Positions 6,886 to 61,085 of a stretch of DNA of 64,000 nucleotides are shown in pieces. Location of the stretch: NCBI GenBank assembly GCA_023458375.1, contig JAEWZT010000006.1, positions 85,931 through 149,930 of the forward strand, written 5' to 3'. The notes under the pieces were generated by a model. That model did no database searches. It was given only the letters and a program-made list of their open reading frames with translations, and was not told the origin of the DNA. Position 1 is the first letter of the stretch. Every line of letters begins with the position of its first letter. This stretch comes from Bacillota bacterium. GTDB lineage: Bacteria > Bacillota > Clostridia > Christensenellales > CAG-314. The translations under genes were made by a program, and so were the position numbers.

Positions 6886-6915
6886 ATTATAAAGTGCAAA
6901 GACGCTTTTTGTCAA
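6886..6915 (-). promoter_or_regulatory. sigma-A type promoter (TTGACA-18-TATAAT) for 6851 gene
   Basis: On the minus strand, TTGACA is at 6915..6910 and TATAAT at 6891..6886. An AGAGGG RBS precedes the ATG. Confidence 0.55.
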
Positions 6916-22435: not shown

Positions 22436-22977
22436 ACGTTTATATCCTTACATTATTATAATACCGTTTACCCCCCTATGCTCAAAACTGCTCCATATTT
22501 ATAAAGCAAAACCCTCAAAACTGTCTTTTTGGATAATTTGCCCTGTCATTTGCGCAAAGAAAGATTTTATTAAAGTGCGCTGCAAGGTTTTAATTATATC
22601 ACAGTATCAAACGCATTGTCAAAAGTTTTAATCGCCGCGCCCGCAGAAATTGCCGCTTAGCAAGACGGCTTTTATTTAGTTTATATATGCAAAAACTTTT
22701 CTTTTGCGCGTTAATTATCAAAGCAGAATTAAAGCGGTCTTCCTCTGCCAGCATTATTCTTGAAATAGCCCAAAATGTTTTAAGGCGCGAAAAAAAACAG
22801 AACGCTTACCGTTCAAAATACGAATTTTTTTAGACTGTCATTCTTGTATAAGTTTTTTATTTCATTAGTTGTTTTAAATATTTTTATTCTAAAAAACGCT
22901 TTTTAAAGAGTTTACGGGCAAAACAATCTTGTATTAAAAGTAAAATTTGAGGGCATGCTCAAATGGGCGGAAAATGC

Positions 22978-37564: not shown

Positions 37565-37594
37565 TTGACAGAGGACAAAAAGGTAAGTTATAAT
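37565..37594 (+). promoter_or_regulatory. sigma-A promoter (TTGACA-18-TATAAT) for alr
   Basis: Consensus hexamers at 37565..37570 and 37589..37594. It follows a terminator-like hairpin at about 37513..37545. Confidence 0.65.
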
Positions 37595-38785: not shown

Positions 38786-40030
38786 ATGAAAAAATTCATT
38801 TCAAAAAATGACGTAAAAATTGAGGAAAAAATAAATGTCTTTGACGAAACCAGCCGCCTTAATAAGGTGCTGCTTCACCGTCCGGGCGGGGAACTGTTAA
38901 ACCTTGTGCCCGAGTATTTGCCGCAAATGCTTTTTGACGACATACCGTGGCTGGAAAAAGCCCGCGAGGAACATGACGCTTTTGCAAAAATATTAAAAGA
39001 CAGCGGCGCGGAAGTGCTTTATTTGGAGGATTTAACATGCGAAGCGCTTTCCGACAACGCCGTCAAAGAGGAATTTGTCAAACAATTCGTGACGGAAGGG
39101 CATATATACACCGAATGGGCGAGAGAAAACGTGGCAAAATTCCTGCTTGACAGACCCACAAAAGAAACGGTGCAAATGGCTATGAGCGGCGTCAGAAAAA
39201 GCCAGATGAAGTTTTCCAAAACGCATCTTGCCGACTTTATGGCGTCGGAATACCCCTTCGTGCTTCCCCCTATGCCCAACCTTTATTTTACCCGCGACCC
39301 TTTCGCGTTTGTGGGCAACGGCGTAATTCCCTGCAAAATGTTTACAAATCAAAGAAGCAGAGAAACTATTTTTGCCGAATATATTTTAAATTACCACCCC
39401 CGTTTTAAGCATTTAAATCGCTACTACGACAGAAACAACGTCTTTTCCGTTGAGGGAGGCGATATTTTGGTTTTAGGCAAGGGCGTTTTGGCGGTGGGCA
39501 TAAGCCAGCGCAGCCAAGTGGAGGGAGTTGAAAAACTTGCTAAAAATATACTTTTTAGCGGCGAAGAAACGGGCTTTAACACCGTTTTAGCAATAGACAT
39601 ACCAAAAACGCGCTCCTTTATGCACTTAGACACCGTCTTTACCGCGTTGTCGCACGACATTTTCACCGTTCACCCCGTAGTCTCAAAGCAATTTTATGCC
39701 TTTGCGCTTACCAACGACAAGGGCGCGCTTAAAATTGAAGAAAAAAGCGGCGCGTTGGAAGATATACTTAAAGAAGTATTAAAACTTGACAAAATCGTCT
39801 TAATTAAGTGCGGCGGCGAAAGCGCCATAGATTCGGCGCGTGAACAGTGGAACGACGGCGCAAACACCCTGGCTATTGCAGACAAAGAAGTAATCGTTTA
39901 CGCGCGCAATAACGTTACCAACGCGCTGTTAAAAGACTGCGGAATAAAGATACATGAAATGGCGTCCTCCGAACTTTCGCGCGGCAGAGGCGGTCCCCGC
40001 TGCATGTCAATGCCCATTAACAGAGGATAA
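38786..40030 (+). CDS. arcA: arginine deiminase
   Basis: 414 aa with PNLYFTRDP, MHLDTVF, and the catalytic Cys in GGPRCMSMP. Confidence 0.9.
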   Translation: MKKFISKNDVKIEEKINVFDETSRLNKVLLHRPGGELLNLVPEYLPQMLFDDIPWLEKAREEHDAFAKILKDSGAEVLYLEDLTCEALSDNAVKEEFVKQFVTEGHIYTEWARENVAKFLLDRPTKETVQMAMSGVRKSQMKFSKTHLADFMASEYPFVLPPMPNLYFTRDPFAFVGNGVIPCKMFTNQRSRETIFAEYILNYHPRFKHLNRYYDRNNVFSVEGGDILVLGKGVLAVGISQRSQVEGVEKLAKNILFSGEETGFNTVLAIDIPKTRSFMHLDTVFTALSHDIFTVHPVVSKQFYAFALTNDKGALKIEEKSGALEDILKEVLKLDKIVLIKCGGESAIDSAREQWNDGANTLAIADKEVIVYARNNVTNALLKDCGIKIHEMASSELSRGRGGPRCMSMPINRG

Positions 40031-40582: not shown

Positions 40583-41374
40583 TTATTTGTTAAGCTTTCT
40601 TTGCACAAGCTCGGGCAGAGCGAAAGAAATTACATCCTCGGCAAATTTTCCTGGACCGAAACCGGCGTCGTAGCCTAATTCTTTGGCGAGTTCGTGCGTA
40701 ATGCGCGCGCCGCCGCAAATTAAAACCACCTTGTCGCGCATATTTTCCGCTTCAAGCAGCTCCACCAAATTGGTAAGGTTTTCTATATGGATATTTTTTT
40801 GCGTTACCGTTTGTGAAACCAACAGTATTTCCGCTTTCATTTCCTTTGCCTTGGCGATAAACTCTTCGTTGGGCACTTGGCTGCCCATATTAAGCGTTTC
40901 AAGCATATCGTAGCGTTCAAGCCCGTAATGTCCCGCAAAGCCTTTTCTGTTCATAATGGCGTCAATGCCTACGGTATGCGCGTCGGTGCCCGTGCTTGCG
41001 CCCAAAATTATTACTTTGCGCCCAAAATATTTTCTTATATAGTCGTTGGTTTCATCCATGCTCATATTCACGCTGTCCACGTCCGCGACGGTAATTTCGT
41101 CGTAATTTATGGTATGCGCACAGCTCCCGTAAACGACATAAAAGGTGAAATCCTTTGAAAGCGGCATTGCGTGAGCTACGTTAGGCTCAATTATGCCCAT
41201 TTTTCTTGCGTATTCAGCCGCCGCTTCCGCCCCCTTGGCGTTGTTGGCAACGGGCAGGGTAAAGCTTAGCTGAACTTTTCCGTCCCCTACGGTGTCGCCG
41301 TAAGGGCGCATTTTCTTGCTGTCTAAAACCCCGCTTTCTTTGGGTCTGTTTAAATTATAAAGCCCGCCGCTCAT
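40583..41374 (-). CDS. kamE: D-lysine/beta-lysine 5,6-aminomutase beta subunit (B12-binding)
   Basis: 263 aa. MRPYGDTVGDGKVQLSF plus a B12-binding Rossmann domain (STGTDAHTVG). Overlaps kamD (ATGA). Confidence 0.85.
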   Translation of the reverse strand: MSGGLYNLNRPKESGVLDSKKMRPYGDTVGDGKVQLSFTLPVANNAKGAEAAAEYARKMGIIEPNVAHAMPLSKDFTFYVVYGSCAHTINYDEITVADVDSVNMSMDETNDYIRKYFGRKVIILGASTGTDAHTVGIDAIMNRKGFAGHYGLERYDMLETLNMGSQVPNEEFIAKAKEMKAEILLVSQTVTQKNIHIENLTNLVELLEAENMRDKVVLICGGARITHELAKELGYDAGFGPGKFAEDVISFALPELVQRKLNK

Positions 41375-42933
41375 AGTTTCCCCTCCTTTTTAAGCATGAG
41401 CTTAATAAAAGGATTAAAGTATCCCTCGCTTTTCCTCACCACGCCGTCAAGTCCTTTGCCCCCTTGCGGGCTTCTTTTAATGGATGCGAATATTCCCCTT
41501 TCAAGAGTGCCGAAAAGCTTAAACTTCTCAATGTCCTCTAAAAGGGAACTTGCCTTTGTCAAAACCTCTTGCGCCCTTTTGACAATTATTCCGTCCTTTT
41601 TAAACTTAATTTCTCCTGAAATGTCCGCCATAGTATTAAAAACATATTTGGCGTTTTCTATCGCCAAAGCGCGGTCGGACATAAAAGGGGTGTGAATGGC
41701 TTCCGTCATCATGCCCAAAAGGTGTATTTTTTGGTCTGTGGCAATGCTTACAATATTAAAAAGCGCGTCCTGAACGTGACCTCTAAAAATATTGCCCGTC
41801 ATAAACTTTGTTGGGGGCATATATTTTAAGGGCGCTTTGGGAAATATTTCCCTCGCCATTTGCGCCTGTGCAAGTTCGTATAAAAAGCCGTTTTTAAAAG
41901 CGGGGTCTATTTCAAAAGCGTGCCCTAAGCCCATTTGTTCTTCTTTCAGTCCCGCTTTAAGGGCAAACTGCTCATTTAAAAACTGCGACGCCAAAACGGT
42001 ATGTGCCTCTTCAACGGCGTCTGCGGTAGTTAGATAGTTGTCTTCGCCCGTATTTATTATTACTCCCGCAAAACCATTTATTACCCTGCTGAAATACTGG
42101 TCTATTATGGTGCGCTTCATGTTTATGTCCCTAAACAATATGCCGTAAAGCGCGTCGTTAAGCATTACGTCAAGGCGTTCAAGCGCGCCCATCGCGGCGA
42201 TTTCAGGCATACATAGCCCCGAGCAGTAGTTGCAAAGCCTAATGTAACGCCCCTCTTCTTCCCCCGCCTTGTCAAGCGCCGCCCTCATAAGGCGGAAGTT
42301 TTCCTGCGTAGCGTATGTGCCGCCGAACCCTTCCGTCGTAGCGCCATAGGGAACGTAGTCCAAAAGCGACTGCCCCGTCGTCCTTATTACGGCAATTATG
42401 TCGGCTCCCTGCTTTGCGGCGGCGGTCGCCTGCGTAATATCCTCGTAAATATTGCCCGTAGCCACTATTAGATAAATTAGCGGTCCTTTTTTGTCGCCGT
42501 ATTTTTGCAGCAGCTCTTTACGTTTATTAACATTGGCTTTGATAATTTTTATGCGTTTTTTAGCCAGCTTATAAACGGCTTCTTCCACCTCTTCTTGGCT
42601 GTGGGAAGGCAAAAGGGTTAAATCAAGCTTTTTTTCCATGACGGCTTTTGCGATTTTTTGCGGCGCCATATTGGTTTCTAATATGGCGTTGCCCATATAA
42701 TATGCCGCGCCCCTTGCCAAAACGCCCTTGTCTACCAAGTGGTCTATTACGATATTGGGCAGCGGAACGCCGAACTTGTCAACTCCGTCAACGCCTAAAA
42801 GCCTTAAAAGCGCGCGCTCAACGGTTACGGTGGTATGCAAATCTATAAAGTCCTGCGTGTCGGAAGCTACCGCCTCGGCGTGCTTTCTGCACTTCGCCAC
42901 CAGCTCATAATTGAGGTTAATTTTACTTTTCAT
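41371..42933 (-). CDS. kamD: lysine 5,6-aminomutase alpha subunit
   Basis: About 520 aa TIM-barrel subunit. The likely start is MKSKINLNYELV at 42933. Position and size match KamD. Confidence 0.85.
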   Translation of the reverse strand: MKSKINLNYELVAKCRKHAEAVASDTQDFIDLHTTVTVERALLRLLGVDGVDKFGVPLPNIVIDHLVDKGVLARGAAYYMGNAILETNMAPQKIAKAVMEKKLDLTLLPSHSQEEVEEAVYKLAKKRIKIIKANVNKRKELLQKYGDKKGPLIYLIVATGNIYEDITQATAAAKQGADIIAVIRTTGQSLLDYVPYGATTEGFGGTYATQENFRLMRAALDKAGEEEGRYIRLCNYCSGLCMPEIAAMGALERLDVMLNDALYGILFRDINMKRTIIDQYFSRVINGFAGVIINTGEDNYLTTADAVEEAHTVLASQFLNEQFALKAGLKEEQMGLGHAFEIDPAFKNGFLYELAQAQMAREIFPKAPLKYMPPTKFMTGNIFRGHVQDALFNIVSIATDQKIHLLGMMTEAIHTPFMSDRALAIENAKYVFNTMADISGEIKFKKDGIIVKRAQEVLTKASSLLEDIEKFKLFGTLERGIFASIKRSPQGGKGLDGVVRKSEGYFNPFIKLMLKKEGKL

Positions 42934-44173
42934 TGCCGTTTTTCCTTTTCGTCCTTGCCAAATCCTTGGGTTCAAGCGACTTCGCGTCGCCTAAAATTAA
43001 CTTTTCCACGCCTATAAGGTTTTTCTTTTGCTTTTCGCATTGCTCGCAATGGCAAACGCTCGTATAATTCGTAGGCTGTGAATAGGCCGTGATTACGCCC
43101 TCAAAGTTTCTTAAAATCACCTTTTCGGGTGACTGCGAAATGAGATAGTTGGGCATTACGGGGATTTTCCCCCCGCCGCCCGGCGCGTCTATCACAAAAG
43201 TGGGGACGGCGTAGCCGCTGGTGTGCCCTCTTAGCCCCTCAATTATTTCAATGCCCTTAGACACGGGGGTGCGGAAATGTTTAAGCCCCATAGACAAGTC
43301 GCATTGATAAATATAATAAGGACGGACCCTTATTTTGACAAGTTCCTGCACAAGCTTTTTCATTACGAAAAGGCAGTCGTTTACGCCCGCTAAAAGCACG
43401 CTTTGGTTGCCCAAGGGTACTCCCGCGTCCGCAAGCTTGCGGCAGGCTTCTTTGCTTTCTTGTGTAATCTCGTTAGGGTGATTAAAGTGGGTGTTAAGCC
43501 AAACGGGGTGATATTTTTTGAGCATTTCGCAAAGCCCGTCGGTAATGCGCTGCGGCATAACTACGGGGGTGCGCGTGCCTATTCTTATTATCTCAACGTG
43601 GGGAATGAGCCTTAGCCGCCTTATAATGTCTTCAAGCTTAGCGTCGGACATCATCAAAGCGTCGCCTCCCGACAAAAGCACGTCGCGAACTTCCTCGTGC
43701 TTTGCGATATAGTCAATACAGTCGTCAATTTGCTTAGCCGCGCAGGCGGTGTCCTTTTGCCCCGCAAAGCGCCTTCTGGTGCAATGCCTGCAATACATGC
43801 TGCACATATCGGTAATCAAAAAGAGAACCCTGTCGGGATAACGGTGCGTCAGGCCCTTAACGGGGCTGTCGGCATCCTCGTGCAAAGGGTCAAGCAAATC
43901 TTCGGGAGAAACAGTAAGTTCCTCGGAAGTGGGGATAGCCTGACGGCGTACGGGGTCAAAGGGGTTTGAAAGATCAATTAAAGAAAGGTAATAGGGAGTA
44001 ATAGCCATTCTCAATGTTGAAAGGCATTTTTTTATCCCCTCCTCTTCTTCCTGCGTAAGGGTGATGAGCTTTTTAAGCCCGTCAAGCGTTTCTATCCTGT
44101 TGGCGACTTGCCAGTGCCAGTCGTTCCATTTGTCTTGCGGAACTTCTGCGAAAAGACCGTTACGCGTTATCAT
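42923..44173 (-). CDS. kamA: L-lysine 2,3-aminomutase (radical SAM, PLP)
   Basis: CSMYCRHCTRRR cluster motif, LLSGGDAL, and C-terminal Zn-binding cysteines. 416 aa. Confidence 0.92.
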   Translation of the reverse strand: MITRNGLFAEVPQDKWNDWHWQVANRIETLDGLKKLITLTQEEEEGIKKCLSTLRMAITPYYLSLIDLSNPFDPVRRQAIPTSEELTVSPEDLLDPLHEDADSPVKGLTHRYPDRVLFLITDMCSMYCRHCTRRRFAGQKDTACAAKQIDDCIDYIAKHEEVRDVLLSGGDALMMSDAKLEDIIRRLRLIPHVEIIRIGTRTPVVMPQRITDGLCEMLKKYHPVWLNTHFNHPNEITQESKEACRKLADAGVPLGNQSVLLAGVNDCLFVMKKLVQELVKIRVRPYYIYQCDLSMGLKHFRTPVSKGIEIIEGLRGHTSGYAVPTFVIDAPGGGGKIPVMPNYLISQSPEKVILRNFEGVITAYSQPTNYTSVCHCEQCEKQKKNLIGVEKLILGDAKSLEPKDLARTKRKNGNEK

Positions 44174-44188
44174 TTTACCTTTTTCTCC

Positions 44189-45223
44189 TTAAATATATTT
44201 TTCTTCAAAAAGTTTGCGTATGCCTTGGTGCTCGCGCAAGACATTAAGCGTTATTTCGGCGTGGTTTTTGCAATAGCCGTTGCCGATTATCATATTTACG
44301 TCCTTGCCTATGCCCTCTGCGCCCAGCGCCGCCTTAGTAAAGCTTGTCGCCATAGAGAAGAAATAGACTATTCCCCCCTCGCGGACGGGCAGAATTGTGG
44401 ACATCTCGGTGTTATGCACGTTTACGCAGTTAATCGACACATCGTATTCGCGCCCCAAGTTTGCCGCCAAAGACTTTTCAAGCACCTCTACGGGCATATC
44501 GGCGGAGGCAAGCACAACTTCGTCGGCTATGCCAAGGGATAACAGAGTGTCGGCATAAGCCTGTTTTCTTACGACGCCCACTACCCTGCCCTTGCTTCCC
44601 GCTTTCTTTTTAGCTTCGTAGCACACTAAAACTCCGCTTTTTCCGCCGGCGCCAAGCACAAGCACGCTGTCGCCCTCTTTGACGAGGTTTGCAGTTTGCG
44701 CGGGCGCGCCCGCAACGTCTAGCGCCGCTAAGGCAAGGTTTTCAGTCATGTCGGAGGGAAGCTTTGCGTAAATGCCGCTTTCAAAAAGCACCGCTTTTGC
44801 CACAACGTCAACTCTTTCTATTTCAACGTGCACGTCGGTAATTTTTTCAATTTTTAAAGGAGTTAAGGAAAGGGATACCAATGAGGCTACCGTGTCGCCC
44901 ACCTTTAAGTCCCTGTCCTTTAAGTCCTCGCCTATATAGGCGATTTTGCCTATAAACATGCCGCCGCTTCCCGTCACGGGGTTTTGCATTTTGCCTATAT
45001 TGCCCGTAATTTCCATAATTTTAGCGGCAATTTTTTCTTTGTCTCCCCCCGCTTCGTGCTTAATCTGCGTAAAGCTTGCGGAATCTATATTGAGCGATAT
45101 TACGTCGCAAAGTATTTCATTTGAGTAAAGAGTGGTAAAATCGTTGTCAAGGCGCTTTGCCGCTTGGGGCAAAATCCCTTTGGGTTCAATGACTCTGTGC
45201 GTTCCGTATTTATTTCCTTTCAT
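44189..45223 (-). CDS. kdd: L-erythro-3,5-diaminohexanoate dehydrogenase
   Basis: 344 aa with N-terminus MKGNKYGTHRVIEPKG and the Rossmann motif VLGAGGKSG. Conserved position in lysine fermentation clusters. Confidence 0.8.
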   Translation of the reverse strand: MKGNKYGTHRVIEPKGILPQAAKRLDNDFTTLYSNEILCDVISLNIDSASFTQIKHEAGGDKEKIAAKIMEITGNIGKMQNPVTGSGGMFIGKIAYIGEDLKDRDLKVGDTVASLVSLSLTPLKIEKITDVHVEIERVDVVAKAVLFESGIYAKLPSDMTENLALAALDVAGAPAQTANLVKEGDSVLVLGAGGKSGVLVCYEAKKKAGSKGRVVGVVRKQAYADTLLSLGIADEVVLASADMPVEVLEKSLAANLGREYDVSINCVNVHNTEMSTILPVREGGIVYFFSMATSFTKAALGAEGIGKDVNMIIGNGYCKNHAEITLNVLREHQGIRKLFEEKYI

Positions 45224-45237
45224 AGGTCTCTCTCCTT

Positions 45238-46062
45238 TTATTTTTTGTCTATTGATAAAATTTTTCTGGCTTCTGCCGTCGTTGCGATTTCTCTTTCAAA
45301 GATTTTGGCTATTTGCACGACTTTTTCCACAAGCTGGGCGTTGCTTTGGGCTTTTACGCCCTTGCTTAGATACACGTTGTCCTCAAATCCTACCCTCACG
45401 TGCCCCCCCATAATAATTGCCATAGTCGCCATTGGAAAAGCCGCTTTGCCTATGCCCGAAACCGTCCAAGTCGCATCATGCGGAATGCTTTCCGCCATAA
45501 AAATAAGGTCGCGTGGCGTTGCGGAAATACCGCCGTTTACGCCCAAAACAAAGTTAAAGTGCATGGGTGAGGTGATAATGCCCTTTTTATTTAAACGCAG
45601 CGCCATATCTATCATGCCCTTGTCAAAAACCTCAATTTCGGGCTTAATATTTTTTTCCGTCATTTTCTTTGCAAAATCAATTATGGTGTTTTCCGTATTG
45701 ACAAAAATGTCGTCGCCGCCGAAGTTGCAGGTGCCGCAGTCAAGCGTCGCCATCTGCGGCAAAAGCTCAATGGGCTGCAACCGTTCTGCGTTGCTCATGC
45801 CTACTGCGCCGCCCGTGCTGGGTTGAATTATTACGTCGGGGCAAAGGGCGGAAATGGCGTCAATGCACTGCCTAAAACGCTTTGCGCTTTGCGTGGGGGT
45901 GCCGTCGTCTTCCCTTACGTGCAGGTGGATTATACTTGCGCCCGCTTTATATGCCAAAAAAGCCTCGCGCGCAATTTCCTCTACGGTATAAGGCACGGCG
46001 GCATTATGCTGTTTTGTTACTTCGGCGCCGCAAATGGCGGCTGTAATAATAAGTTTTTCCAT
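45238..46062 (-). CDS. kce: 3-keto-5-aminohexanoate cleavage enzyme (BKACE/DUF849)
   Basis: 274 aa: MEKLIITAAICGAEVTK...IIHLHVRE... Confidence 0.85.
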   Translation of the reverse strand: MEKLIITAAICGAEVTKQHNAAVPYTVEEIAREAFLAYKAGASIIHLHVREDDGTPTQSAKRFRQCIDAISALCPDVIIQPSTGGAVGMSNAERLQPIELLPQMATLDCGTCNFGGDDIFVNTENTIIDFAKKMTEKNIKPEIEVFDKGMIDMALRLNKKGIITSPMHFNFVLGVNGGISATPRDLIFMAESIPHDATWTVSGIGKAAFPMATMAIIMGGHVRVGFEDNVYLSKGVKAQSNAQLVEKVVQIAKIFEREIATTAEARKILSIDKK

Positions 46063-46067
46063 ATTTT

Positions 46068-46454
46068 TTACTTCCTTTGCTTATTTTTTGGCACTACGCA
46101 GGTGCCGCTAGCCCTGCAAACCAACACGGGCGGGTCTAAAACGTCGCACGCCGAGGGGGACAGGTCGGGGCGGGGGGCGATAACTTTTTTAGCCTCAAAA
46201 ACCATTTTGCGGCTGCTGTTTCCCACCGAAAGGATTTTTCCCGTAACTTCAATGTAGTCGCCCGCGTATACGGGGGCAAGGAACTCCACATTGTCGTAGG
46301 CAACGAAAAGCCCTTCGTCGCCGTCGTGGATAATTAAAAGTTCCGTTGCAGCGTCGCCGAAAAGCGCCAGCATTCTTGCGCCGTCAACAAGGTTTCCGCC
46401 GTAGTGCGCGTCGGCGTTGCTCATCCTCAAACGAATAGTTGATTTGACTTCCAT
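46068..46454 (-). CDS. kal: 3-aminobutyryl-CoA ammonia-lyase (hot-dog fold)
   Basis: 128 aa with [17 protein letters not shown]. First gene after the L-box. Confidence 0.75.
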
Positions 46455-46471
46455 TATTTACCTCCCGCAAT

Positions 46472-46692
46472 AAAAAAAGCTATCAGCATAGGGAAAGACC
46501 CTAAATACTAATAGCGCTTCAATTTTATAAAAATTGACAGTAACCCCGCAGCTTATGCGTGGCTCCCAAGGAAAAATCTAGCGGAAAACTTCTTCTCCTT
46601 TCGGCGGAAAACCCCTTTGCGCGTAAAGAGCCGCTCCTCTTATTTTGCCGCGCTACCTTGAATTCCGCTACCTCTATATTATTTAATTTACC
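46472..46692 (-). promoter_or_regulatory. lysine riboswitch (L-box) with intrinsic terminator
   Basis: The minus strand reads AGAGGTAGCGGAATTCAAGGTAGCG...GGAGCGGC...CAAAGGGG...GCCGAAAGGAGAAG...CCTTGGGAGCC...GGGGTTACTGTCAA, which matches the L-box core blocks. The terminator is GCTATTAGTATTTAGGG-tcttt-CCCTATGCTGATAGC plus T7 (46515..46472). Confidence 0.85.
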
Positions 46693-46698
46693 TTTTAT

Positions 46699-46728
46699 AT
46701 TATATAACAAAAACCTTTTCTTTGTCAA
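46699..46728 (-). promoter_or_regulatory. sigma-A promoter (TTGACA-18-TATAAT) driving the L-box leader
   Basis: On the minus strand, TTGACA is at 46728..46723 and TATAAT at 46704..46699. Confidence 0.7.
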
Positions 46729-46737
46729 CTGCCAAGA

Positions 46738-48153
46738 TTAAAAATTTGACATAAAATCGTCGCTTAACCCCAATAGGCGGCACACCTCTATCGCGTCTTT
46801 TGGCGCGGGTGAATTTAAGGATACCCGCTTTAAACCGTAATCCATGAGGCGCGAAATCTCTTTTAAGCCTATATTTTGCCCCTTAACGCCCTCTTGTCTT
46901 AGTCCGCCCGTTTGATAATGGGCGGCGGCGTAAGGCGCTACGTTGTCGTAGTGCGTCGTCAAAAGCGCATAAAGCTCGGGCGTTTTGTTAAGCGTTTTTA
47001 CTACGGCGGCAAGTATTTTTTCCCCCTCGGCAGCGTTGGTTCCCCGCGCGAACTCGTCCATGACTACAAGGCAATTTTTGTCTTTAAACAAAGCGTAGCC
47101 GCCGTTAAGTCTTACTACGTCGCAGGCAAAGCCCGAAAGCCCGTCCTCCTCCTTTTCACCCTCAAAGGGAAGATAAAAATAGCCTTCAAACAAAGGTGAA
47201 GAAAAACTTTCCGCAAAAACATAAAAGCCGAACTGCATAAGCAGGCAGTTGACAAGCAGCGACTTTAACGCCACCGTTTTGCCCCCCATATTCGCGCCCG
47301 TAAGCACCGTCGCGCCTTTTTCAATTTCAATGTCAAGGGGAGTAAACTGTCCGCCCGCTTTTTCAAGCCTGTCTTTGATATGGGGAAGAATCATTTGCTT
47401 TGCCGCGATGTTTTCTTCAACAATTTGCGGGCGGGCGCAATGGTATTTTGTTGCCAACTCTGCTTTTGCAAGCAGCAAATCGTAAGCGCCCAAAAGTTTG
47501 TAGTTAAAAAGCATATCCTCTTTATATGCTTCCAGTTCGTCGCACATTTGCTTTAAAGCATCTCCTTCAAGCTCTTTTTCTTCCGCCCAAAGCTTGCCGT
47601 GAAGGGCAAGGCACTCTTCCCTTTCACTTCCTTTTAAAGTTTTTAGTTTTGCGTCAAGTATTTTCTTTTGTTCCCTTACGCTTTTTAGCTGCGGGCGCCC
47701 TTTGCCGCTTATAAAAAATACTTCCGCCCTCAGCCCTTCGGGGTCTAAAATGAGAAGGGGCATTTTAACGTCTTTTAGTTTATCGTGGCTTTTAAAGGCG
47801 CACGTTTGTCTAAGGGAACTTATCAAAGGCAACATTTTTTCGCATGTCAGCAAAAACCGCTTGATTTCAAACAGTTCCACCTCGTCAAGCAAGCCGCCGC
47901 ATTTTAAAAGCGTTTTTTCAATTACGCGCGTTTGCATCAAAAGAAAGGAAACGTCCTTTCTTATTTTTGCCGTCTGCGGATAATTTTCTATAAGCGTGCC
48001 GATATCTTGCAAATAATCCCTTAGTTCTTCCTCCTCTCCCTTTAAAAACGGTTTTAAGGTAAGTTTTTCGCCCAAAGGAGAATTAAAACTCAATAAATTT
48101 AAGCAATAAGTAAAGCCGCATATTTTTTGCTGCTCTTGCGTTAAGTTAATCAT
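46738..48153 (-). CDS. MutS-domain-V-like ATPase (probable lysine 5,6-aminomutase reactivase component)
   Basis: Walker A GANMGGKT, Walker B VVMDEFARGT and a TTH motif typical of the MutS ATPase domain. There is no mismatch-binding N-terminus. ATG at 48153. Confidence 0.6.
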   Translation of the reverse strand: MINLTQEQQKICGFTYCLNLLSFNSPLGEKLTLKPFLKGEEEELRDYLQDIGTLIENYPQTAKIRKDVSFLLMQTRVIEKTLLKCGGLLDEVELFEIKRFLLTCEKMLPLISSLRQTCAFKSHDKLKDVKMPLLILDPEGLRAEVFFISGKGRPQLKSVREQKKILDAKLKTLKGSEREECLALHGKLWAEEKELEGDALKQMCDELEAYKEDMLFNYKLLGAYDLLLAKAELATKYHCARPQIVEENIAAKQMILPHIKDRLEKAGGQFTPLDIEIEKGATVLTGANMGGKTVALKSLLVNCLLMQFGFYVFAESFSSPLFEGYFYLPFEGEKEEDGLSGFACDVVRLNGGYALFKDKNCLVVMDEFARGTNAAEGEKILAAVVKTLNKTPELYALLTTHYDNVAPYAAAHYQTGGLRQEGVKGQNIGLKEISRLMDYGLKRVSLNSPAPKDAIEVCRLLGLSDDFMSNF

Positions 48154-49213
48154 AAAATTTACCTCTCGTATCAAAAAGGGGCAAATTGGTTTTTGCCTTT
48201 AAATCATCCGCAAATTTGTTTGCGTCAAGTATATACCCCTCTACGGAATAAGGGTTTATGGCGACCGCCGCTAAATTAACGCTTTTTTTGACTGCGAAAA
48301 ATACGCCCGATGCCTTAGCCCTGTAAAAAATTTCTTTGGAAAGCATTATTTTACTGCTGTCTTCAGCAATGACAGTTAACGGCTTTTTGCCCTTAGCTTT
48401 AATCAACGGCATAAGTGCGCCGTCGGTAAGCGCCCCCTCAATTTCGACAATTTCTTTTTCTTTTATTTTATTCAAAATTTTTTTATTATTATCGGCGCGG
48501 GACAAACCGCTTTTTGCGCTTGAAGTTGAGGCTAAACACCCTTTCGGGGCGAAGGAAAAGTCCTTTTGTTCTTTGTAAAGCTCTCCGCTTGGGTTTTTTA
48601 TAAAAGACAAAGGCAAGCCTGCCTTGTCAATGTTTTCTTCCGCCAAAGGCAGCGTCAAAATGTCAATGTTAAACAGCGTTTCTTCAATTAAAGCGTCATA
48701 GCTAATTGAAGAACCTGCCCCCGCCACAAGCAGGCAGGCGTCGCTTAATTTCGCGGTAATTAAAGAGCGGCGGGAAAGCGCGCCGTCTATCAGCACTTTT
48801 TGGGCGCCTTTGTCAAAAAAAATATCTTTTAAACCTGCCAGCTGAGACGTAATTGAAGGTCCCGCCAAAATAACTTTACCCCCGGACAGCGCCCTGCATA
48901 CCGCCACTACCCCCAAGGGCGTATAAAAATCCGTTACCGCAATAATTTCTTTGGTTGCAGTGCAAAGCGGCAGAAGTTCTTTTGCAGTCGCGAAAAGCAT
49001 ACCGCTTTTTACGTATATTTGCGGCTTGTCGGTGCCGGACAAAACGTCAACTTTTTCGCCGTCAAGCCCTATGGAAGTAATCGCCAAAGGTTCGCAGTTT
49101 TCCCTCTCAAACCCATCAATTAAGGTGTTGAGCAGCGTGGTCTTTCCCGCATTTTTGCATATTCCCGTAACGGATAGGCACTTATATGAAGATAAAAGTT
49201 TTGCAAGCGTCAT
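48146..49213 (-). CDS. P-loop protein (GICKNAGKTT), probable partner of the MutS-like ATPase
   Basis: 355 aa with an N-terminal P-loop. It overlaps the downstream gene by 8 nt, consistent with translational coupling. Confidence 0.45.
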   Translation of the reverse strand: MTLAKLLSSYKCLSVTGICKNAGKTTLLNTLIDGFERENCEPLAITSIGLDGEKVDVLSGTDKPQIYVKSGMLFATAKELLPLCTATKEIIAVTDFYTPLGVVAVCRALSGGKVILAGPSITSQLAGLKDIFFDKGAQKVLIDGALSRRSLITAKLSDACLLVAGAGSSISYDALIEETLFNIDILTLPLAEENIDKAGLPLSFIKNPSGELYKEQKDFSFAPKGCLASTSSAKSGLSRADNNKKILNKIKEKEIVEIEGALTDGALMPLIKAKGKKPLTVIAEDSSKIMLSKEIFYRAKASGVFFAVKKSVNLAAVAINPYSVEGYILDANKFADDLKAKTNLPLFDTRGKFYD

Positions 49214-49735: not shown

Positions 49736-50755
49736 TTAAAGCTTATCGCTTGTTATTTCACCGCGCAGATTTTTTTCCATCATAGCTGCCAGACTTTCCC
49801 CCTCAAAACCGAGCGAAAGCAAATGGTAAAGCTTGCATACCGCGCTTTCCGCCGTCATATCAAAGCCGCTTATAGCGCCAAAATCTTTAAGCGTTGAGGA
49901 AGCCTCGTAAAGACCCAAACGCGCGTTGCCTTGCAGGCACTGCGTAACTATGACTATCGCCGTGCCGTTTTCCTTTGCCTTTGCCAAAAGCCTTGTCAAG
50001 CCGTTGTCCCCCTGCGGCACGTTGCCCGAACCGAAAGCTTCCAAAACAATTCCTTTCAGTTCAGGCTTTAAAATATTTTCAAAAATATCAAACTGTATGC
50101 CGGGAAAAACTTTCAGCACCGCAATAGGAAAAGCTTCGAAGGGATGAAAAGAAAAAGCTTGCGCGCTTCTTTTCAACAAATATTTTTTGTTAATTCTCAC
50201 CTTGCCATCCCTCTTCCATTTGGCAAGGGGGGCAAAATTAGGGGAAGCAAAGGCGGCGAGCGCGTCTGCGGATACCTTGGTAGCTCTGTTGCCGCGAAGC
50301 AGCGTTCCGCCAAAACACACGCAAACTTCCTTTAAGCTTTTGTGCGCGGCAAGGCGGAAAGAGTAAATCAAATTTTCGCCCGCATCGCTGTTGCTTTCGC
50401 AGAAGGGAATCTGCGAACCTGTCAAGATTACGGGCTTGTCAAGCCCCTCAAACATAAAGCTTAGCGCCGATGCGGTATAGCACAGGGTGTCCGTGCCGTG
50501 CAGCACAACAAAGCCGTCGTAATCTTTATAATTTTGAAAAATGACCGACCCTATTTCATTCCATTGCGCCAAAGACACATTGCTGCTGTCTAAAATGACG
50601 GGCAGCTCAATAAGGTGGTATTGAGGCATCCCCTCCCCATTAAGGGGGGCAAATTTTTGCAGTTCCGCCGCAAAGAAACCTTTTTTTGTGGCGTAACCGC
50701 GGCTGGTCTTTGTCATACCTATTGTTCCGCCGCTGTGGATAACGCATATTTTCAT
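49736..50755 (-). CDS. ansA: L-asparaginase, type I
   Basis: MKICVIHSGGTIGM (catalytic TGGT-like), HGTDT and a C-terminal domain. Start at 50755. Confidence 0.85.
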   Translation of the reverse strand: MKICVIHSGGTIGMTKTSRGYATKKGFFAAELQKFAPLNGEGMPQYHLIELPVILDSSNVSLAQWNEIGSVIFQNYKDYDGFVVLHGTDTLCYTASALSFMFEGLDKPVILTGSQIPFCESNSDAGENLIYSFRLAAHKSLKEVCVCFGGTLLRGNRATKVSADALAAFASPNFAPLAKWKRDGKVRINKKYLLKRSAQAFSFHPFEAFPIAVLKVFPGIQFDIFENILKPELKGIVLEAFGSGNVPQGDNGLTRLLAKAKENGTAIVIVTQCLQGNARLGLYEASSTLKDFGAISGFDMTAESAVCKLYHLLSLGFEGESLAAMMEKNLRGEITSDKL

Positions 50756-50944
50756 TTTGACAAAATATCCTCCCGTCAAGCAAAAACAGTATATATTATT
50801 TTCCTCTGCCCTGTCAATATCGGCGGCAAAAAATGCTTTTTTAGCGCGGCAAACAAATATAATTTTTATAACGCTTAGAAAAAATATTCCGCAGCCTTAA
50901 AAGTTTTTGCCGCAAGCTCATTGCTGGTTAAAAATCTAACGCGC

Positions 50945-60938: not shown

Positions 60939-61050
60939 AAAATAAAGAAAAGCGCCGAAATAACTAACGTTATTTTCGGCAACTGGCTGTCTCTTTCGGG
61001 ACCCTATAGCTTTGCGTCGCCACCTTACGGATAGCTTTGCTTTGATTCAC
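60939..61050 (-). promoter_or_regulatory. c-di-GMP-I (GEMM-I) riboswitch with terminator 1
   Basis: The minus strand reads CAAAGCAAAGCTATCC-GTAA-GGTGGCGACGCAAAGCTATAGGGTCCCGAAAGAGACAGCCAGTTGCCGAAA, with a GNRA-capped P1 hairpin and the hallmark ACGCAAAGCUAUAGGGUC and CAGCCAGUUGCCGAA blocks. Terminator 1 is GCCGAAAATAAC-gtta-GTTATTTCGGC followed by TTTTCTTTATTTT. Confidence 0.85.
60977..60991 (-). repeat. 15-nt direct repeat copy 1 (GACAGCCAGTTGCCG, within aptamer)
   Basis: Identical to 60923..60937. The two copies are spaced 54 nt apart. Confidence 0.9.
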
Positions 61051-61056
61051 AAAAAG

Positions 61057-61085
61057 ATTATACAGCTCCTTTACAGTTTTGTCAA
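61057..61085 (-). promoter_or_regulatory. consensus sigma-A promoter (TTGACA-17-TATAAT) of the riboswitch/operon
   Basis: On the minus strand, TTGACA is at 61085..61080, followed by a 17-nt spacer and TATAAT at 61062..61057. The upstream flank is AT-rich and UP-like. Confidence 0.8.

Follow-up and report, generated by a model that had tools for sequence, protein, structure and literature searches.

Why should a lysine riboswitch stand in front of an operon that degrades lysine? The question is raised by a stretch of 64,000 nucleotides (nt), called the window here, from a Bacillota bacterium (GTDB lineage Clostridia; Christensenellales; CAG-314; assembly GCA_023458375.1, contig JAEWZT010000006.1, positions 85,931 to 149,930), in which the minus-strand intergenic region 46455..46737 contains a promoter, a lysine riboswitch (L-box) aptamer and a terminator hairpin. 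These elements directly precede kal-kce-kdd-kamA-kamD-kamE, all six of which match NCBIfam equivalogs. Characterised lysine riboswitches are described in reviews as OFF switches (PMC11477304), and an earlier note on this DNA, made from the letters alone, had proposed that lysine should here induce instead, leaving the alternative pairing unsettled. Anatomy, folding energetics and comparative covariation support that proposal: with a probability of roughly 0.85, the element is a transcriptional lysine riboswitch with ON logic.

One strand shared by the aptamer and the terminator

The covariance model of the L-box family, RF00168, aligns with the leader over model positions 1-182, its full length, at 73.9 bits (cmscan, E 2e-17; the gathering score is 30 bits), which confirms the complete aptamer described in the earlier note. 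Downstream of it, the hairpin 46515..46479 folds at -19.3 kcal/mol (z -4.72; 0 of 200 shuffles as good) and abuts a run of seven U, as expected of the intrinsic terminator that had also been noted (Table 1). A simple terminator scan of the window did not list this hairpin, the probable cause being a 2-nt bulge in its stem. The 5' arm of the terminator contains the entire 3' strand of helix P1, and P1 and the terminator are therefore mutually exclusive. Folding of the leader reveals no separate antiterminator between the P1 3' strand and the terminator arm, and the pairing that had been left unsettled thus comes down to a choice between two structures, P1 or the terminator.

The two states were compared by folding transcripts of different length. 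For a transcript ending at 46501, the minimum free energy (MFE) structure is the complete aptamer including P1, with a P1 G-C pair probability of 0.52. Once the terminator is complete, the terminator state reaches -66.3 kcal/mol versus -55.6 kcal/mol for the P1 state, leaving P1 with a probability of 0.0. If P1 is constrained to stay closed, what remains of the hairpin is truncated and ends 6 unpaired bases short of the U tract, and no hairpin abutting any U-run is found in the folded window leader. Closed P1 thus has no termination-promoting effect in the folds, an effect that the earlier note had named as evidence against induction; instead, the terminator is lost. Given that termination is the default and that a stabilised P1 prevents it, the logic is that of an ON switch.

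In the mechanism proposed here, RNA would start at the consensus promoter and the L-box aptamer would fold co-transcriptionally, with G46515, the P1 3' strand and the bases to 46499 doubling as the 5' arm of the terminator. Without lysine, P1 would be weak, having four core pairs, and the 3' arm of the terminator would capture the shared strand, so that the full hairpin would form beside the U tract and transcription would stop before kal. Lysine in the five-way junction would lock P1, leave only the truncated hairpin away from the U tract, and allow the polymerase to read through into kal-kce-kdd-kamA-kamD-kamE. In the cell, kinetic competition between the two structures would then decide the outcome, and lysine would act as the inducer.

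Conservation of the design among kal-linked leaders

KAL-relative loci were fetched from species genomes (80), from metagenomes (80) and from the family to which the window belongs (13). KAL was found in 14 of 61 genomes of this family and in 0 of 40 genomes sampled from the order's remaining families. An L-box precedes every kal locus of the family that has enough upstream sequence, and eight of the family genomes that carry kal yielded no other L-box. The metagenome loci contributed only one new L-box leader. Altogether, 23 leaders carry an L-box directly 5' of kal, the window included, and span its family, Oscillospiraceae and other Clostridia. The Rfam model confirms most of them; L194 has support from nhmmer but none from the covariance model, and L195 is cut by the end of a contig (L numbers are our labels for loci). 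The controls are 30 L-boxes from 100 related genomes, located upstream of asd (15), genes for amino-acid ABC binding proteins (8), NhaC-type antiporter genes (3), dapA (1) and unnamed genes (3).

The geometry separates the two sets. In 20 of the 23 kal-linked leaders, including all those from the window's family, the terminator starts 1-5 nt ahead of the initial P1 3' base. In the controls it starts at +9 to +77 relative to that strand, except in three flagged leaders, and a P1-overlapping hairpin as the sole terminator occurs in none of the 30, be they linked to asd, dapA or transporter genes. The flagged overlaps (L001, L103 and L109) were rejected upon inspection, which showed that an independent terminator is kept with P1 closed; in L001 the flagged hairpin is an antiterminator. 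Regulation is of ambiguous sign in L103 (G041:C3:99201-99373), which precedes an NhaC-type antiporter: a small terminator there offers its loop and 3' arm as partners to the P1 3' strand, giving two possible hairpins that share one U-run as their end.

In a fold test, a terminator is formed only with P1 open in 17 of 23 kal-linked leaders versus 2 of 30 controls, and only with P1 closed in none of the former versus 7 of the latter. The MFE classes of the controls are noisy, since 13 of 30 show a terminator in both states and the 2 that look ON do so through distant effects, and reliance is therefore placed on the geometry and on the test with closed P1.

Covariation provides a further line of evidence. 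The terminators are only 44% identical over the ten bases after a conserved clamp, and yet in 18 leaders the cognate arms pair at a mean of -5.28 kcal/mol versus -0.77 kcal/mol for swapped arms, a mean attained in 0 of 10000 permutations, and in 15 of the 18 no other arm is a better partner than the cognate one. RNAalifold independently predicts a helix between the G plus P1 3' strand and the bases before the U-run. Within this shared helix, 92.9% of cells are paired versus 75.9 +/- 2.5 in shuffles, and 22 cells carry double-sided changes versus 7.6 +/- 2.1 (0 of 500 shuffles for either measure), while slid registers are only 32-56% paired. For example, a change from A to G at one P1 3' base is matched by a change from U to C in its terminator partner, giving A-U in 12 sequences and G-C in 5.

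Departures from this simple plan were also seen. In the leaders at L012:1366-1460, L057:2384-2475 and L066:2379-2465 (Clostridium, Dethiosulfatibacter), an extra hairpin lies between P1 and a separate terminator, and in the first two the partner segment of the P1 3' strand has a second possible partner, the terminator 5' arm. Such a four-element chain would plausibly give ON logic as well; the case of L066 is unclear. Three other leaders (L017:2370-2450, L003:2350-2410 and L004:2346-2410) repeat the final aptamer strand (GAUGAAGCGCUAUUGG and similar) beyond the first terminator. The repeat, too, is joined to a hairpin, with a U-run behind it in L017, and one sensor may gate two stop signals in these leaders. 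The window has a single terminator module only.

Integrity of the aptamer and its promoter

The window aptamer retains 33 of the 37 columns that are at least 90% conserved in the 30 control aptamers, and these cover every junction motif (AGAGG, GCCGAA, UGG, ACUGUCA and G-AG-N-GCU). The conserved core is thus kept, and the loss of ligand-binding residues, the other finding that the earlier note had considered fatal to its proposal, is not observed. All five helices, P1-P5, are built of canonical pairs, four in the case of the P1 core. In the lysC riboswitch of B. subtilis, the elements tested functionally are G39 of the core, the kissing loops L2 and L3, and the docking of A156/A157 in L4 on G98/G99 of P2; mutation of G39 abolishes the lysine response, and mutation of either side of the latter contact kills it (PMC3082890). 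Judging from its position in the consensus, 46672 in the window is probably the equivalent of G39. Loops L2 and L3 are complementary, which upon inspection of the letters is consistent with a kissing contact, and both partners of the P2-L4 contact are present, the GG at P2 being the putative equivalents of G98/G99. The P2 internal loop, canonically of the loop-E (sarcin-ricin-like) type, reads CAAG-GUA on its 5' side, where A-N-N-AGUA in each of the 30 controls has one base more; its 3' side is canonical. Nothing in the aptamer suggests loss of the binding pocket, and it would be expected to bind L-lysine.

The promoter agrees with the consensus at 12 of 12 positions, as claimed in the earlier note, and transcription probably starts near 46693..46691 (-). 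TATAAT boxes are likewise found just 5' of the L-box in L022/L130, L202, L203 and L205. Perfect TTGACA-N16-18-TATAAT promoters are rare by chance, 0.03 being expected from shuffles of the 64-kb window, which has five. Another of these precedes a c-di-GMP-I riboswitch (60975..61051 (-)). From the end of the aptamer to the kal start codon, on the same strand, there are 50 nt.

A second L-box of opposite design in the same genome

The genome carries a second L-box, L001 (G000:C6:273149-273322, 92 bits), which precedes a gene for an amino-acid ABC substrate-binding protein of the Lys/Arg/Orn type. Its terminator is a separate hairpin that forms with P1 open or closed. When P1 is open and the 3' arm of the terminator is still unmade, the P1 3' strand pairs with the terminator 5' arm as an antiterminator, the antiterminator fold having -65.7 versus -62.1 kcal/mol. 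As modelled, L001 is a classical OFF design, and the pair suggests that one genome would use the same sensor in both polarities, with rising lysine closing uptake and opening fermentation. The genome, which is 95% complete, contains dapA (G000:C7:83625-84431), and no lysA (diaminopimelate decarboxylase, TIGR01048) was found in it. The organism may be auxotrophic for lysine, taking the amino acid up and fermenting it.

Peculiarities of the kal-linked aptamers

Absence of one base on the 5' side of the P2 internal loop is common to 18 of 20 kal-linked aptamers and to 0 of 30 controls, where the kal-linked counts, taken from L003, L005, L021, L022, L017, L159, L193 and L196 to L205, are approximate. 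Apart from the window copy, the kal-linked aptamers lack the AAAGG strand of P2 and mostly have a GAAUGUG-like stretch instead of GAAAGG, and most of their L4 loops, for example UCAGU or UUAGU (of the Y-U-Y-A-G-Y type), are devoid of the AA. The two sides of the P2-L4 contact, through which the binding pocket is known to be organised, thus appear to have been replaced jointly in most kal-linked aptamers. The window copy combines the kal-type 5' side with the canonical GG and AA, a hybrid that would represent an intermediate form. That the kal-linked L-boxes are a structurally distinct sub-class, in which replacement of the P2-L4 contact could retune folding speed or the lysine threshold of a catabolic ON switch, is a tentative and rather doubtful idea; it is just as possible that the features are neutral and trace a single aptamer lineage that moves with the operon.

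Alternative explanations and points against induction

One alternative is a classical OFF switch, in which lysine would promote termination and repress the fermentation operon, as all biochemically characterised L-boxes are OFF switches (PMC11477304; PMC3082890). However, an OFF platform requires a terminator that survives closure of P1 and an antiterminator that uses the P1 3' strand, whereas the only terminator in the window contains that strand and vanishes with P1 closed. L001 displays the OFF design for contrast, and a substrate that represses its own catabolic operon would be physiologically senseless, which together make repression by lysine extremely unlikely. Equally little credit can be given to control exerted mainly on translation, with the ribosome-binding site masked or exposed by the switch. 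Although a U-rich stretch of P5 pairs weakly with GGGAGG in one unconstrained fold, this pairing is a run of G-U pairs that is absent from full-leader folds, and the Shine-Dalgarno sequence, 6 nt past the U tract, is unpaired in both modelled states; besides, a strong hairpin running into U7 is the hallmark of a transcriptional stop.

It is also conceivable that the aptamer is a decayed relic, the hairpin serving as a constitutive attenuator or as the terminator of kamB-kamC, and that another factor controls the operon. The hairpin lies ~220 nt 3' of kamC and would stop read-through from kamBC too, the P1 core is short, and one base of the P2 internal loop found in all controls is missing. Such an explanation is nevertheless very unlikely: a perfect promoter stands between kamC and the aptamer, the covariance score is high (73.9 bits), the near-invariant columns (33 of 37) and both tertiary contacts are kept, the overlap is maintained with compensatory changes in leaders without an upstream kamC (L003, L005 and L200 to L203), and a conserved operon of six genes would be silent if termination 25 nt before kal were constitutive. 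As to the ligand, gene-associated sub-classes of other riboswitch families have proved to bind other ligands, and the kal-linked aptamers do form a recognisable sub-class, so that beta-lysine or another pathway intermediate might be sensed in place of L-lysine. This appears highly improbable, because the differences of the sub-class are located in the peripheral P2 loop and L4, all junction pocket motifs are kept, the window copy is canonical even at the P2-L4 contact, and L-lysine is the substrate of KamA, the first enzyme of the pathway.

Several points weigh against the ON switch favoured here, or call for caution in reading the evidence for it. Only four canonical pairs make up the P1 core, its two outer pairs count as non-canonical in the covariance model, and the longer P1 that is proposed requires one bulge and one mismatch. 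Swapping P1 strands between species gives no cognate-specific signal (821 of 5000 permutations), and the support for P1 therefore comes from its conserved core and the covariance model. The terminator state is ~10.7 kcal/mol more stable than the P1 state, so that lysine would have to act kinetically, within ~30 nt of transcription, which plausibly fits a switch meant to respond only to abundant lysine; nearest-neighbour folding leaves out tertiary and ligand energies. Moreover, the compared leaders are kin, and their counts overstate independence; three kal-linked leaders (L012, L057 and L066) use a different platform, the logic of which is partly resolved; and the P2 internal loop is without a base that 30 of 30 controls have on its 5' side.

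The operon and its neighbourhood

By its gene content, the operon encodes lysine fermentation via beta-lysine and 3,5-diaminohexanoate, all six equivalog matches being above their cut-offs. Immediately 5' of the switch and on the same strand lie kamB and kamC, which are not behind the switch's own promoter, and the promoter and switch are hence placed inside the kam cluster rather than at its head. Read-through transcripts from kamBC would meet the switch too. The gene kamC is also directly 5' of the L-box in L017, L193, L199, L204 and L205, and the order kal-kce-kdd-kamA is kept in relatives. The flanks of the kam cluster, with arginine deiminase and type I asparaginase (38786..40030 (+), 49736..50779 (-)), constitute a neighbourhood of amino-acid catabolism.

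KAL is ~78-84% identical across Clostridia, Bacteroidales and Candidatus Lokiarchaeum ossiferum (L061, CP104013.1), with many Bacteroidales loci (among L007 to L082) carrying a KAL of ~80% identity. This similarity reflects either remarkable conservation or horizontal spread. No L-box was found at any sampled Bacteroidales or Lokiarchaeum KAL locus.

Table 1. Sequence features of the putative lysine-responsive leader and its operon in the window (positions of the 64,000-nt stretch)
Feature	Position	Strand	Basis or remark
Sigma-70-type promoter	46728..46699	(-)	TTGACA 46728..46723, 18-nt spacer, TATAAT 46704..46699; 12/12 consensus
Perfect promoters in the window	6886..6915, 22593..22622, 37565..37594, 46699..46728, 61057..61085		Sequence scan
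Lysine riboswitch (L-box, RF00168), helices P1-P5, five-way junction	46684..46504	(-)	cmscan
P1 5' strand, core AUAG	46674..46677	(-)	Pairs with CUAU 46514..46511
P1 5' strand, possible extension UUAAAUAAU	to 46686	(-)	MFE structure of transcript ending 46501
Junction AGG	46671..46673	(-)	Motif present in sequence
Sites of sub-class comparison	46654..46660, 46612..46619, 46550..46556	(-)	
L2 loop AGCGG	46635..46631	(-)	Sequence and helix coordinates
P2 3' side CAAAGGGG	46612..46619	(-)	GG 46615..46614, receptor for L4
L3 loop CCGCU	46584..46580	(-)	Complement of L2 loop
L4 loop region AUAAGCU	46550..46556	(-)	Conserved AA at 46554..46553
J5/1 AGCG	46518..46515	(-)	Covariance-model alignment
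P1 3' strand CUAUUA, shared segment (P1 or terminator)	46514..46509	(-)	cmscan alignment and terminator fold
Intrinsic terminator	46515..46472	(-)	5' arm 46515..46499, loop 46498..46494, 3' arm 46493..46479, U7 46478..46472
Terminator 5' arm GCUAUUAGUAUUUAGGG	46515..46499	(-)	Fold
Shine-Dalgarno GGGAGG	46466..46461	(-)	6 nt beyond U tract
kal start codon ATG	46454..46452	(-)	Open reading frame list
Operon behind the switch, kal-kce-kdd-kamA-kamD-kamE	40583..46454	(-)	Six NCBIfam equivalogs
KAL	46454..46068	(-)	NCBIfam equivalog
KCE	46062..45238	(-)	NCBIfam equivalog
KDD	45223..44189	(-)	NCBIfam equivalog
kamA, lysine 2,3-aminomutase	44173..42923	(-)	NCBIfam equivalog
kamD, lysine 5,6-aminomutase alpha	42975..41371	(-)	NCBIfam equivalog
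kamE, lysine 5,6-aminomutase beta	41374..40583	(-)	NCBIfam equivalog
KamB, lysine 5,6-aminomutase reactivase	49213..48146	(-)	NF052386, 277 bits
KamC, lysine 5,6-aminomutase reactivase	48174..46738	(-)	NF052383, 383.6 bits

Relation to known switches and significance

Activating lysine riboswitches have been predicted before, and the statement in the earlier note that such elements stand 5' of lysine-utilisation genes agrees with passages of two papers. One lists L-boxes 5' of kal-kce in C. sticklandii, of kal in F. nucleatum and of pspF-kal-kce in Thermoanaerobacter as positively regulated (PMC5584792). The other, citing Rodionov et al. 2003, describes some lysine riboswitches as ON switches that act by burying pieces of terminator stems, and it ascribes a two-element ON scheme to certain glycine, adenine and lysine riboswitches (PMC2258182). 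The element in the window is thus a further example of a wiring for which published predictions go back to 2003, rather than a switch of a new kind; our literature search found no bench test of an ON lysine riboswitch. It shares with the predicted elements of C. (Acetoanaerobium) sticklandii, F. nucleatum and Thermoanaerobacter the aptamer family, the pathway, kal as the first gene and the proposed terminator-burying logic. It differs from them in its host, a relative of Christensenella-like Clostridia with a 1.63 Mb genome, in having the entire pathway from kal to kamE as one unit behind the switch, and in the location of the switch, with its own promoter, between kamBC and kal.

In the pbuE (ydhL) adenine riboswitch of B. 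subtilis, the P1 3' strand lies in the terminator, the two structures are mutually exclusive, termination is the default and the time left for the ligand to act is short, all as proposed for the kal leader. This switch has been named as having ON logic of the same kind (PMC2258182), and its aptamer and ligand are unrelated, so that the likeness is one of mechanism and not of family. By comparison, the lysC leader of B. subtilis resembles that of kal in its five-helix aptamer, junction motifs, L2-L3 and P2-L4 contacts and control by termination (PMC3082890), but it has three elements (P1, an antiterminator and a separate terminator), with lysine causing termination, whereas the kal leader has two elements and the sign inverted; the kal aptamer also misses one base on the 5' side of the P2 internal loop. 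The glycine riboswitch on the glycine-cleavage genes gcvT, an ON switch, is similar in that an amino acid turns on its own degradation by way of an RNA sensor (PMC11477304); it belongs to another aptamer class, is often tandem and has been validated experimentally, unlike the switch described here, which is predicted.

What the present analysis adds is a matched OFF/ON pair in one genome, the distribution of the kal-linked L-box at the family level, formal covariation of the shared helix against a control set of 30 leaders, and the observation of a kal-linked sub-class. The window copy is a convenient candidate for bench tests, being canonical at every experimentally probed position of the sensor and having a minimal platform, with 63 nt from the P1 3' strand to the start codon, a single terminator and a perfect consensus promoter, and the same genome provides L001 as a matched OFF control. 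If validated, a lysine-inducible switch would be a useful genetic part. For the organism itself, the arrangement suggests how a gut-type anaerobe with a small genome may balance lysine, with uptake being shut and fermentation being opened as lysine rises.

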